The notes under the pieces are model-generated. The model saw nothing but the letters and a program-made list of their open reading frames with translations, made no database searches and had not been told where the DNA came from. Below, in pieces: positions 29,345 through 36,090 of a stretch of DNA of 64,000 bases. The stretch's first letter is position 1; every line of letters begins with the position of its first letter. The DNA comes from Eledone cirrhosa. Its lineage: Eukaryota. A program made the translations under genes and the position numbers. The DNA lies in assembly GCA_964016885.1 (NCBI GenBank), contig OZ024744.1:125674001-125738000 (forward strand). Direction: 5' to 3'.

Positions 29345-29437
29345 CCCTAACCCTAAACCTAACCCCAACTCCAACTCTGACCCTAAACCTAACCCCAACC
29401 CCAACCCCAACCCTAACCCTAACCCTAACCCTAACCC
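29345..29437 (+). repeat. Degenerate telomere-type (CCCTAA)n tract fused to the spacer repeats
   Basis: ccctaa/ccccaa hexamers ending ..ccctaaccctaacccacgatag. Confidence 0.9.
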
Positions 29438-30363
29438 ACGATAGAAGACGTTCGTTACCGCTGGAGCAACGCAAATTACTCCTCGGTTGACGCCAAAAAC
29501 GAACGCCTTCTCGACGGCTAGCCGCATTTCGTGATCCGCCTTTCGATTGCGCTTCCGTCGCGGAAAAAGAATTGCCTTTATAGGCCGCCGCCGCCCGACC
29601 GGACCCACGATAGAAGACGTTCGTTACCGCTGGAGCAACGCAAATTACTCCTCGGTTGACGCCAAAAACGAACGCCTTCTCGACGGCTAGCCGCATTTCG
29701 TGATCCGCCTTTCGATTGCGCTTCCGTCGCGGAAAAAGAATTGCCTTTATAGGCCGCCGCCGCCCGACCGGACCCACGATAGAAGACGTTCGTTACCGCT
29801 GGAGCAACGCAAATTACTCCTCGGTTGACGCCAAAAACGAACGCCTTCTCGACGGCTAGCCGCATTTCGTGATCCGCCTTTCGATTGCGCTTCCGTCGCG
29901 GAAAAAGAATTGCCTTTATAGGCCGCCGCCGCCGCCCGACCGGACCCACGATAGAAGACGTTCGTTACCGCTGGAGCAACGCAAATTACTCCTCGGTTGA
30001 CGCCAAAAACGAACGCCTTCTCGACGGCTAGCCGCATTTCGTGATCCGCCTTTCGATTGCGCTTCCGTCGCGGAAAAAGAATTGCCTTTATAGGCCGCCG
30101 CCGCCGCCCGACCGGACCCACGATAGAAGACGTTCGTTACCGCTGGAGCAACGCAAATTACTCCTCGGTTGACGCCAAAAACGAACGCCTTCTCGACGGC
30201 TAGCCGCATTTCGTGATCCGCCTTTCGATTGCGCTTCCGTCGCGGAAAAAGAATTGCCTTTATAGGCCGCCGCCGCCGCCCGACCGGACCCACGATAGAA
30301 GACGTTCGTTACCGCTGGAGCAACGCAAATTACTCCTCGGTTGACGCCAAAAACGAACGCCTT
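29435..30363 (+). repeat. 169/172-bp GC-rich tandem repeat (5 full + 1 partial), putative rDNA spacer/ETS subrepeats
   Basis: atagaagacg at 29441, 29610, 29779, 29951, 30123, 30295; length differs by one GCC; lies ~360 bp upstream of the 18S start. Confidence 0.9.
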
Positions 30364-30721
30364 CCGGTTCGGGCGACGTAAAAGTCTGTAGCCTTTTCGC
30401 CGATCCTCGACGATTATCCGCCTTCCGAACAACCGCCTTTCCGCCGTCACAGCAGTAGGTACTCGTCCGTCGTAATAGCCGTCATTTTAATGCAGGAGAA
30501 ACGCCTAAATGCACTGCGATTGACGACGATCTACGACGCGCTTACTCTTCCTTGCTGCGACGAAGGTTTCGTTCGGCTTTTCGTCGTGGACCCGGTCAGG
30601 TCATGCCGCTGATCTCGCGTTGCGTCGTTACCGCTGGAGCAACGCAAATTACTCCTCGTTTAACGCCAACATCGAACGCGCTTCGGTTCTCGGTCGTCGT
30701 TGTTTTGTTTCGTGCGGAAGA
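30364..30721 (+). other. Putative 5' external transcribed spacer
   Basis: CpG-rich DNA contiguous with the 18S 5' end. Confidence 0.6.
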
Positions 30722-30907
30722 TACCTGGGTGATCCTGCCAGTAGTCATATGCTTGTCTCAAAGCTTAAGCCATGCAAGTGGAAGTTCATGCCGTAAACGA
30801 AAATGGTGAAACCGCGAATGGCTCAGGAACCGGATCTAATCCTCGGGACCGTATTCCTCACCGCGAGGAGAGGATAACTGTGGCAATTCTAGAGCTAATA
30901 CATGCAA
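30722..30907 (+). pseudogene. 18S rRNA 5' fragment (~185 nt)
   Basis: TACCTGGgTGATCCTGCCAGTAGTCATATGCTTGTCTCAAAGcTTAAGCCATGCA ... GGTGAAACCGCGAATGGCTCA ... GGATAACTGTGGCAATTCTAGAGCTAATACATGC. Confidence 0.93.
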
Positions 30908-30909
30908 TT

Positions 30910-33900: not shown

Positions 33901-35325
33901 GGTGGATAGTTGGTTCCGGGTTTTACTATGATTGTTGCAAAACAGAAACTTAAAGGGATTGACAGGATTTGCGATTCCGGAGAGGGGGCGATCCGTCTGC
34001 TTGATTCCGATAACGAACGAGACATTCGTATCCGAAAGAACGTTTGTCTGGAAACTGGTGAGTCAGTGAGTCGAAAAAAAAATATCTCGGTGGTAGTAGC
34101 AAATATTCGTATGCGAAAGAAAAGATCTCGGTGGTAGTAGCAAATATTCGAACGAGACATTCGTAGGCGAAAGAAAAATATCTCGGTGGTAGTAGCAAAT
34201 ATTCGAACGAGACATTCGTATTCGAAAGAACGTTTGTCTGGAAGTTGCGATCCATGCCCGGTGGATAGTTGGTTCCGGGCTTTACTATGATTGTTGCAAA
34301 ACAGAAACTTAAAGGGATTGACAGAATTTGCGATTCCGGAGAGGGGGCGATCCGTCTGCTTGATTTCGATAACGAACGAGACATTCGTATCCGAAAGAAC
34401 GTTTGTCTGGAAACTGGTGAGTCAGTGAGTCGAAAAAAAAAATATCTCGGTGGTAGTAGCAAATATTCGAACGAGACATTCGTATGCGAAAGAACGTTTG
34501 TCGGTGGTAGTAGCAAATATTCGAACGAGACATTCGTATGCGAAAGAACGTTTGTCGGTGGTAGTAGCAAATATTCGAACGAGACATTCGTATGCGAAAG
34601 AACGTTTGTCTGGAAGTGGCGATCCATGCCCGGTGGATAGTTGGTTCCGGGTTTTACTATGATTGTTGCAAAACAGAAACTTAAAGGGATTGACAGAATT
34701 TGCGATTCCAGAGAGAGGGCGATCCGTCTGCTTGATTCCGATAACGAACGAGACATTCGTATCCGAAAGAACGTTTGTCTGGAAACTGGTGAGTCAGTGA
34801 GTCGAAAAAAAAATATCTCGGTGGTAGTAGCAAATATTCGAACGAGACATTCGTATGCGAAAGAACGTTTGTCTGGAAGTGGCGATCCATGCTCGGTGGA
34901 TAGTTGGTTCCGGGTTTTACTATGATTGTTGCAAAACAGAAACTTAAAGGGATTGACAGAATTTGCGATTCCGGAGAGGGGGCGATCCGTCTGCTTGATT
35001 CCGATAACGAACGAGACATTCGTATCCGAAAGAACGTTTGTCTGGAAACTGGTGAGTCAGTGAGTCGAAAAAAAAATATCTCGGTGGTAGTAGCAAATAT
35101 TCGTATGCGAAAGAAAAGATCTCGGTGGTAGTAGCAAATATTCGAACGAGACATTCGTATGCGAAAGAAAAATATCTCGGTGGTAGTAGCAAATATTCGA
35201 ACGAGACATTCGTATTCGAAAGAACGTTTGTCTGGAAGTTGCGATCCATGCCCGGTGGATAGTTGGTTCCGGGCTTTACTATGATTGTTGCAAAACAGAA
35301 ACTTAAAGGAATTGACAGAATTTTC
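30910..35325 (+). repeat. Satellite of scrambled 18S/28S rRNA fragments, ~13 units of 263-467 bp with an internal 54-bp subrepeat
   Basis: Unit landmarks at 31165, 31482, 31949, 32321, 32639, 32956, 33274, 33593, 33910, 34269, 34641, 34904, ~35263; motifs GATTCCGGAGAGGG, TTCCGATAACGAACGAGAC, GAAACTTAAAGG(G/A)ATTGAC (18S) and ATCTCGGTGGTAGTAGCAAATATTC (28S). Confidence 0.9.
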
Positions 35326-35344
35326 GAATCGACATCAACTCGGC

Positions 35345-35710
35345 TACGGCTATCCCGTCGAGTACGAGAGTATCGCGGGATCAGAGCAACGGTTTGCTAG
35401 GCTGCCTCTGAGCGATAACGGCTGAACGCCTCCTCTAAGCCGGAACCCTAGCCGGACCCGAGTTGTTTTTCGACAAGCGTCTCGACCTTCTTAAGGCCCA
35501 TGCCTTAGTTTGGCGATTGCCGTCCGTTCGCCGACGGCGGCAGCGTCAGCGGAAATGCCATTCTGTGACGACTACGACGATTCGTCGTCGTCGTCGTCCA
35601 TTCGATTTCCTGAAAGAGATAGAGACTAAAGTGATCAAATTGTTCGGAGTTACGTGCTTAGTAGAGCAGCTACCACACTGCAATCTATTGAGAGTTTTCT
35701 GACGAACGAT
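35345..35710 (+). pseudogene. 28S rRNA 3'-terminal fragment, diverged and internally deleted
   Basis: AGTACGAGAG (sarcin-ricin loop) at 35361, CTGAACGCCTC(ctc)TAAG at ~35422, GTAGAGCAGCT..CTGCAATCTATTGAGAGT at ~35661, in canonical order. Confidence 0.8.
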
Positions 35711-36090
35711 ACAATCCGCCCACGTGGCGCCAGAAAGGGAGAAGAAAAGAAAAGTTAGACGCCGCCGATCGATCGGTTCGTTGTTTTACGTGTACACAGC
35801 TTGTGTGTGTGTCTGTATGTGATACAAGCCGCCTATCCGTCTTCCAAGTAAGTTTTGTGTGTAGACTGCGGAAAGAAATCCAATCCGCCGTCTAGGCGGT
35901 TCTGCCGCCGACCCATACTTTTGCGAGTCGCTCCCGGGAAAGACAGGCGGCAAGACGGCGTGTATACACGACGCCTTCCGTCTTCCGCCTCGAACCCGGG
36001 CAAACGTTCCTTTATTCGTCCACGCCTTCCCGCTTCGATCGCGAGAAAGTAATCAATCTGTTTTGTGTGTGTGTCTGTGTGTGATACAAA
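35711..36090 (+). other. Putative 3' ETS / proximal IGS
   Basis: CpG-rich DNA immediately after the 28S 3' end. Confidence 0.45.

Follow-up and report, generated by a model that had tools for sequence, protein, structure and literature searches.

The window analysed here, 64,000 nucleotides of Eledone cirrhosa DNA, carries a unit that we consider, with reasonable confidence, to be a silent passenger amplified with a large tandem repeat, namely a promoterless rDNA orphan with a scrambled satellite inside it and about 7% of the rDNA body still in place (714 nt, against 10,539 in the reference). The array to which it belongs is probably inert and not transcribed, judging by its sequence.

Layout of the unit and its array

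The layout is given in Table 1. A first-pass annotation had listed spacer repeats, ETS-like DNA, the 18S 5' end, a satellite cargo, and the 28S 3' end with a trailer as a unit with intact ends; the parts are real and lie in that order, but the labels of cargo, spacer repeats, and intact ends are wrong. The repeats are 93-97% identical to canonical sub-repeats at -1990..-1240, and other units have 3-9 copies of them. They map to -1990..-1560 from the canonical 18S, past the last start-like motif, and so are taken as 5'-ETS and not spacer. The 18S 5' end, which had been called exact over 185 nt, is 191 nt long with 4 substitutions in 189 aligned nt plus 2 gaps. The 28S end is matched by the Rfam LSU model at 35334-35716 with 61.6 bits, and the trailer ends 110-300 nt short of where the next spacer start-like motif would be. 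The reported absence of 5.8S and ITS holds for 5.8S, of which the monomer has no significant piece (a 7-nt likeness only, below null), but a 19-nt ITS1 piece is present. The unit has no complete collinear 18S-5.8S-28S and would be unable to encode rRNA. A tRNA search found none, no histone coding motif was found within the window, and the open reading frames of the satellite were rejected as genes, being repeat artefacts. A short C-rich telomere-like run also precedes the second ETS fragment, and a 16-bp satellite at 37129-37359 follows the internal 28S scrap.

Table 1. Coordinates in the window of the unit, its macro-repeat, and neighboring rDNA scraps
Feature	Position	Strand	Remarks
Separate second 5'-ETS fragment	22480..23330	+	Same macro-repeat; 94% identity to canonical
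One macro-repeat period carrying the unit	29344..62234	.	32.9 kb
Degenerate C-rich telomere-like tract	29344..29437	+	TRF; 4-nt overlap with first ETS repeat, aligned by eye
5.4 copies of 169-172-bp repeat	29434..30364	+	Inferred 5'-ETS sub-repeat, amplified
Remaining 5'-ETS with internal deletions	30365..30721	+	~830 nt before 18S lost, final 43 nt kept
18S nt 1-191	30722..30912	+	Aligned to the genome's own 18S
Mosaic satellite	30913..35331	+	Monomer ~263-372 bp, 54-bp sub-repeat inside
Decayed final ~460 nt of 28S	35332..35722	+	31/384 substitutions, 7 gaps
3'-ETS/IGS trailer with deletions	35723..36089	+	Matches canonical 3' spacer
73-nt histone-3'-end-derived scrap of dispersed foldback repeat	36088..36160	+	Contains Rfam Histone3 stem-loop
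Third rDNA scrap, internal 28S piece	36924..37129	+	97% identity

A second copy of the unit starts at 62235. On contig C28 there are about 47 macro-repeat copies of 31-50 kb (median 37.5 kb) forming an array of at least 1.78 Mb, which adjoins other satellites within a satellite- and transposon-rich block where a LINE frame is intact. The upstream flank is the same in 23 of 24 units, the sequence of the remaining one not reaching that far. Copies differ from one another by 0.01-0.03% substitutions within the unit itself and by 0-0.12% in neighboring DNA, so the unit is no more uniform than its surroundings. The earlier statement that a defective rDNA derivative had been amplified in a macro-repeat is supported. 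The array originates from host rDNA, stands apart from the functional rDNA, and is tandem and homogenized with a variable monomer number.

Several other identities were considered and rejected. A dispersed SINE or other non-autonomous transposon does not agree with the same upstream flank recurring in those 23 of 24 units, which are among the best 40 scored matches. A telomere-capped rDNA minichromosome does not agree with an interstitial position 10 Mb from the contig end, and the G-rich tract downstream is the local 16-bp satellite; a mobile, telomere-capped rDNA was dismissed since no such tracts lie beside 14 other rDNA copies. The histone stem-loop is not credited as a 3'-end signal, as it belongs to a dispersed foldback scrap whose downstream part is lost; of 12 loci, 8 share this match over 68-73 nt and 3 are true histone genes, with matches of 33-62 nt.

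Zero-difference contigs from sequencing run X1 bridge the ETS deletion join at a depth of 3,693 and the join between 18S and satellite at 3,770, and because they do, the unit junctions are real DNA. No one contig spans the whole unit. The abundance ratio, from one run, suggests about one unit per true rDNA copy. Runs of 11 other organisms contained 45-53% of the words; in the 3 of these that were compared (X4-X6), monomer contigs have 0-2 differences at depth 3-57, and X5 and X6 also contain the Eledone cirrhosa canonical ETS at depth 4-10, with conserved 18S bins at 10^4-10^5. Conservation across species was rejected as the explanation; these matches are best read as trace contamination and are not used as evidence.

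The satellite as a mosaic of rRNA-gene pieces

The satellite monomer is an rDNA-derived mosaic, not the foreign cargo it had been called. Pieces of the genome's own 18S, ITS1, and 28S, each 15-39 nt long, account for 67% of it at a score of at least 15 and 76% at 12 or more, with a null of 0.01 matches per shuffled monomer at the former threshold. All 5 significant distinct pieces per monomer are sense and none is antisense, but their order is scrambled. They comprise 18S 575-589, 1843/1867-1900, and 2042-2080; ITS1 289-307, which occurs at 38 places; and 28S 1396-1413 and 2083-2121. The 34-39-nt pieces have 91-97% identity to 18S or 28S and are repeated 12-29 times per unit. At the 6 distinct joins the exact overlaps are 3, 5, 10, 4, -2, and 1 nt, giving microhomology of 4-10 nt at 3 of them (null P of 4 nt or more, 0.022). 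A hairpin or GC bias of deletion was rejected, with a GC of 0.51 in the islands versus 0.58 (P = 0.11) and unremarkable local folding. It had also been proposed that the satellite partly restores the length of the missing body, which does not fit a satellite of 0.72-8.6 kb in the 23 units measured, with match spacing implying lengths of 9.8 and 13.4 kb in others.

Start motif and decay of the ends

The canonical unit of 22.5 kb contains 12 copies of a start-like motif, TATATAGGG, the last at about -2169 from the 18S, and the ETS repeats sit 170-215 nt downstream of this inferred start, which we place from the motif and the layout. Spacer and terminal copies have only about 40 nt in common. The motif fits the arthropod start consensus (PMC2590618), with 4 matches versus 0.29 expected in L027. 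In the window there are 0 copies of it, and neither the window nor any of 62 loci within or beside the array (470 kb) has the duplicated start-like block. The arthropod consensus has no match within the unit, and its 25 matches in the window are no more than chance would give (20.5 ± 4.3). Two changes in each ETS repeat produce a weak TATAGG-like word, still 4 mismatches from the consensus. Hence the unit likely lacks a Pol I core promoter, given a start placed by motif, and the proposal that the kept parts carry Pol I initiation loses its footing.

At the other end, the 28S piece has 31 substitutions in 384 nt (8.1%), the IGS 22 in 253 (8.7%; Fisher p = 0.77), the sarcin-ricin loop is mutated, and most of some 1.2 kb immediately past this piece is missing. 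The 28S end thus diverges like spacer, with no sign of purifying selection, so the exit once described as intact is not. Divergence in the 18S 5' block is lower than in the 28S end (4/189 versus 31/384, p = 0.005) but not lower than in the adjoining ETS (p = 0.14), and it is lower in the 5' half as a whole than in the 3' half (18/456 versus 53/637, p = 0.004). Constraint or gene conversion at the 18S 5' block is possible on these counts.

Proposed origin

Of 14 other rDNA copies compared in this genome, 13 are collinear and one, on C6, is circularly permuted. Many of these show kilobase-scale deletions with blocks overlapping by 2-14 nt, so this mode of decay is general in the genome. On C4 there is another orphan that recurs, together with its flank, at a spacing of 39.4 kb. 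To account for the unit, we propose that a segment whose start lay a short way into the 5'-ETS escaped from the main array, like other orphans, and that microhomology-mediated deletions then reduced the body to islands of 15-60 nt, a few hundred bases altogether. Slippage over short distances at shared words, such as one of 10 nt that occurs in both 18S and 28S and the overlaps of 4-5 nt, would have reordered and duplicated these islands, giving a tandem monomer. Unequal exchange would keep altering the numbers of monomers and ETS repeats, and a recent amplification in a domain rich in satellites would have multiplied the whole block of 31-50 kb, including transposon debris. The ends would survive because internal deletions spare them, not by selection.

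Several findings count against the passenger reading, among them the lower divergence of the 18S 5' block and the TATAGG-like word of the ETS repeats. Other copies retain 41-99% at a similar substitution load, so 7% is far outside their range. Slow decay by itself is a poor fit to this, and its explanation may require a burst of template switching; no state intermediate between full rDNA and the mini-unit is among the matches listed. Inert DNA would also not be expected to come so close to true rDNA in abundance.

Alternative readings

It is unlikely that the array is a natural pseudo-NOR or rRNA-decoy locus, binding Pol I factors or yielding small RNAs that match rRNA, and so buffering or silencing the ribosomal genes. 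Pseudo-NORs are promoterless, non-transcribed, UBF-binding arrays of Mb size, in the portion of PMC3923965 consulted, and by sequence the present array would resemble them in being promoterless and of Mb scale. In its narrower form, which we consider rather improbable, the array would bind the rDNA HMG-box factor (UBF or an equivalent) through its amplified ETS repeats and CpG-rich rRNA scraps, would stay open while untranscribed, and would sequester the Pol I machinery or tether the chromosome to the nucleolus. The size, the unit count near that of true rDNA, and a CpG observed/expected of 1.4-1.9 in the array versus 0.19 in the flank agree with it. However, that CpG level is inherited (canonical rDNA has 1.4-1.7), rDNA-derived sequence makes up no more than about 15-25% of each macro-repeat, the repeats that were amplified are not those of the upstream enhancer type, and there is no excess conservation. 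A search of the genome for a UBF-type domain gave no match, in a search without a working control.

Improbable to a slightly greater degree is a source of small RNAs, in which read-through of the Pol II or piRNA-cluster type across hundreds of rRNA-core scraps would give sense or antisense small RNAs matching pre-rRNA that tune or silence rDNA. The repeated 34-39-nt pieces and the transposon-rich setting with its intact LINE frame are what such a locus might have, but selection for targeting would preserve a higher identity than these pieces show. The junctions occur in no RNA run among those available, none of which is known to come from Eledone cirrhosa; the best RNA matches are 6 soil or fungal metatranscriptomes with a share of 0.05, which probably match through the conserved 28S piece.

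The reading offered in the first-pass annotation, a Pol I-transcribed non-ribosomal RNA that relies on retained signals for initiation, 5' processing, and 3' end formation, is very unlikely. The ordered ETS-18S junction and 28S end, the less diverged 5' half, and the TATAGG-like word speak for it, but the start-like block is absent, the 28S end and the DNA behind it have decayed or gone as described above, and length varies more than tenfold. A selfish replicon, by which a shrinking extrachromosomal rDNA circle, in the manner of a petite or defective-interfering genome, won by keeping only replication or amplification signals and was then reintegrated and spread, is the least credible, for although the extreme hollowing relative to other copies and the permuted copy on C6 would suit it, the amplified unit is the macro-repeat, mostly transposon debris, and not the mini-rDNA, the 5' flank is the same in every compared copy reaching that far, and no solo copy is among the matches listed.

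Relation to known systems

The comparisons that follow draw on parts of the cited papers. A tomato rDNA-derived satellite (PMC2679016) was likewise born from degenerating 45S by internal duplication and loss of neighbors, but it amplifies an IGS sub-repeat with coding sequence eliminated, whereas the monomer here consists of scrambled 18S, ITS1, and 28S scraps, with the two gene ends still on either side of it. The frog 5S satellites PcP190 and 219A (PMC12054243) are also rRNA-derived and outside the functional locus, but each has one collinear 5S source where ours is a multi-gene mosaic of 15-39-nt pieces. Human dispersed 45S pseudogenes (PMC5381670) are displaced, decaying rDNA too, and pseudogene numbers can match functional copies, as in Cycas revoluta, where about 50% of rDNA is pseudogenes (as cited in PMC10462631) and to which our ratio of about 1:1 compares; the human and Cycas copies are described as degraded near-full-length or diverse, in contrast to one hollowed form whose copies are over 99.9% alike. 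The synthetic XEn pseudo-NOR (PMC3923965) is a promoterless, Mb-scale, rDNA-related array as well, but its definition includes UBF binding, silver staining, and a secondary constriction. SINE28 and other rDNA-carrying mobile elements (PMC10946416) also multiply rRNA-gene fragments outside the NOR, though dispersed by transposition and not in tandem with the same flanks in compared copies. A literature search, mostly without subscription papers, found neither a satellite of scrambled 18S/28S pieces nor a cephalopod rDNA pseudogene array.

If the array is inert, it is an unusually clear record of how a satellite is born, with the source of at least two thirds of the monomer and most joins readable base by base, and the 14 less-decayed rDNA copies of the same genome serve as earlier stages of the deletion process. 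There is a practical side, in that any estimate by read-depth, qPCR, or FISH that relies on the 18S 5' end, 28S 3' end, or repeated core motifs would overcount rDNA here, by a factor of about two or more, and might suggest a false NOR. If instead Pol I factors are bound or small RNAs are made, the array would offer a natural test of whether non-transcribed, rDNA-like arrays regulate nucleoli.

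Composition of the satellite

The satellite between the two gene ends of the unit had been annotated as separate cargo, but its sequence is rDNA, with pieces that match the genome's own unit. One monomer carries five significant pieces against that unit, 5/5 in sense orientation, where 100 shuffled monomers give 0.01 matches each at the same score. Together the rDNA pieces account for 67% of the 4,419-nt satellite, or 76% at a looser threshold. The six distinct joins have exact overlap lengths of 3, 5, 10, 4, -2, and 1 nt; at random positions an overlap of 4 nt is reached with P = 0.022. 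A 10-nt word is common to 18S 2071-2080 and 28S 2107-2116, and the 54-bp sub-repeat arises because of this shared word. The piece order is partly collinear (18S 191, 18S 580, 18S 2042, ITS1, 28S 2083), with three backward jumps.

The window covers C28 125674001-125738000. The reference for these matches is a tandem 22,492-bp rDNA unit on contig C12 of the 3.0-Gb animal assembly, with an 18S of 2,876 nt, a 5.8S, and a 28S span of 6,342 nt. One 28S site is found in three states, with nothing on C1, an apparent insert of about 1.2 kb in the C12 reference, and about 5 kb of other DNA on C2, which suggests R2-type inserts as the source of the variable DNA there.

Locations of the unit, its pieces, and associated features (gene positions are those of the reference unit)
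Feature	Location	Orientation	Remark
Unit	window 29344..36089	+	
Satellite	window 30913-35331		
Satellite piece	28S 1396-1413	sense	significant in monomer
Satellite piece	18S 1867-1900	sense	significant in monomer
Satellite piece	18S 2045-2080	sense	significant in monomer
Satellite piece	ITS1 289-307	sense	significant in monomer
Satellite piece	28S 2083-2121	sense	significant in monomer
Sixth satellite piece	18S 575-589		exact match in 7 monomers
Two further rDNA scraps per macro-repeat	window 22440-23330, 36924-37129	same as unit	each touches a telomere-like run
16-bp telomere-like satellite	window 37129-37359; C28 124.66-124.69 Mb (L047-L050)		inside each macro-repeat; left of the array gap
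196-bp satellite	window 37360-41384 and 1-4522; C18 6.746-6.85 Mb	alternating inverted blocks	CpG-rich; on C18 it expands into a long pure array
LINE frame	window 16170-19043	-	957 aa uninterrupted, endonuclease and RVT_1; carried in macro-repeat
Array	C28 124,691,719-126,474,900		assembly gap on each side
28S site with about 5 kb of other DNA	C2 166.88-166.89 Mb (L115-L116)		
Full rDNA unit, permuted	C6 69.58-69.60 Mb (L035-L036)		18S 588 to end, spacer, 18S 1-299
Full rDNA unit in apparent reverse-transcriptase gene	C4 352.06-352.11 Mb (L022-L026)		recurs with flank 39.4 kb away
Histone stem-loop foldback repeat	L139-L150		many C18 and C28 sites

Layout, joins, and divergence

The order of parts in the first-pass annotation is borne out by the window. 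The ETS deletion join and the 18S-satellite join are both bridged by zero-difference contigs of run X1, evidently from this species, and the satellite-to-28S join is visible at a loose contig end in the same run; since X1 contigs bridge them, the joins exist in sequenced DNA. The 18S block, described as an exact 5' end, covers 18S nt 1-191 and differs from the canonical unit by 4 substitutions and 2 gaps. Nor does the satellite restore the length of the missing 9.9-kb body, as it runs from 0.72 to 8.6 kb (median 5.0) in 23 of the 24 units examined, the remaining one ending at a contig end and most having been picked to fit 10-kb stretches. Match spacing implies longer satellites, two of 9.8 kb and one of 13.4 kb.

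Divergence from the canonical unit is 9/223 in the ETS, 4/189 in the 18S block, 31/384 plus 7 gaps in the 28S end, and 22/253 in the IGS. The 18S block is less diverged than the 28S end (p = 0.005) but not significantly less than the ETS (p = 0.14). The proposed check on decay finds the 28S end diverged at the IGS level (p = 0.77), with its sarcin-ricin loop altered, so the exit is not intact, and at this level of comparison we see no sign of selection on the unit. Differences between copies are 0.01-0.03% in unit parts (30-34 copies) and 0-0.12% in neighbouring DNA (2-29 copies); hence, uniformity is a property of the whole block.

The putative start site

In each canonical unit, a block ending in TATATAGGG occurs 12 times. 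Eleven copies lie upstream in the spacer, mostly at intervals of about 710 bp, and the last is at -2169 from the 18S. Around it, spacer and terminal copies have only about 40 nt in common, as duplicated core promoters would be expected to. The block fits the arthropod Pol I start consensus of PMC2590618, with 4 matches versus 0.29 expected in genomic locus L027; TATA and GGGG boxes are general features according to PMC6730533. The start-like block is absent from the window, where the best 40-mer has 18 mismatches. In 470 kb of sequence from 62 loci within or flanking the array, the 12-nt form of the motif has no match and the 9-nt form has one, outside the array, while the arthropod consensus is at chance level across the window with no match within the unit. 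The likely Pol I initiation signal is thus not among the parts kept. The unit begins 170-215 nt downstream of the last start-like motif position, and its trailer ends before the next; the repeats annotated as spacer would therefore be ETS.

Origin of the unit

Fourteen other rDNA copies retain 41-99% of the body with 0.2-6.9% substitutions, and the unit is the extreme among them at 7% retained and 6.2% substitutions; the insert in the reference 28S slightly depresses some of these retention figures, leaving the conclusions unaffected. Thirteen of the 14 are collinear, and large deletions in these copies have block overlaps of 2-14 nt. The C6 copy is circularly permuted, as expected for a reinserted circle. 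The C4 copy interrupts an apparent reverse-transcriptase gene, recognised by eye and probably Penelope-like.

Within the best explanation, the unit would probably have formed by microhomology deletion of the rDNA body at the DNA level, followed by local slippage; with the body down to a few hundred bases, the backward jumps would be ordinary short duplications. A reverse transcriptase jumping on pre-rRNA is a distinctly less probable source: the unit's extent resembles read-through pre-rRNA and every satellite piece is sense, but a poly(A) tail and target duplication are not seen by eye at the unit. Less likely still is a repair-associated burst of serial template switching. The C-rich tract, which meets the unit at a 4-nt overlap, may mark a healed break, but tracts of this kind also lie in dispersed repeats within the same window.

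The array and its neighbours

C28 holds at least 43 unit positions at a median spacing of 37.5 kb, or about 47 units, and, among the 40 candidates scored per search, copies lie at least on C18, C178, C760, C1185, and C1204 as well. The 16-bp satellite adjoins the array for at least 31 kb (31.5 kb), and other satellites extend back to 124.0 Mb. The C18 unit copy adjoins the 196-bp inverted satellite, which occurs at all positions sampled as far as 6.85 Mb and is possibly a pericentromeric repeat. All 31 candidates for a canonical-only ETS probe match, yet just 6 do so over the full length at ≥97%, so the assembly has probably collapsed the true rDNA arrays. Contig depths in X1 are 3,614, 3,693, and 3,770 for unit-specific and 3,633 and 4,526 for canonical-type sequence, a ratio near 1 by a rough measure from one run.

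Of the other elements, the LINE region has 1 substitution in 5,602 nt versus 2 other copies, and a dispersed foldback repeat consists of a pair of histone 3'-end stem-loops in inverted orientation, separated by about 90 nt, and lacks histone coding sequence. The genome also has 84-bp zinc-finger-like repeats, which together with the 2,876-nt 18S may point to a coleoid cephalopod.

Class and expression

Among the 24 sequencing runs listed for words of the unit, the six RNA runs are all environmental, with 5% of the words, and none of the listed runs of the organism richest in these words is recorded as RNA; the listing speaks neither for nor against transcription. The monomer also turns up in runs of 11 other organisms (X4-X14), at trace depth in the 3 examined, likely a marker of cross-library contamination.

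The unit does not behave as a functional rDNA unit or as a dispersed element in tests for either; judged by sequence, it would be an amplified rDNA pseudogene with an rDNA-derived satellite nested inside it. A functional role as a natural pseudo-NOR or rRNA-decoy locus seems improbable, and the unit is real, odd, and most likely silent and inert. The literature listings contain no entry for a multi-gene monomer of rDNA scraps that is framed by both gene ends. What makes the unit unusual is such a monomer, so framed, at a copy number about that of true rDNA.
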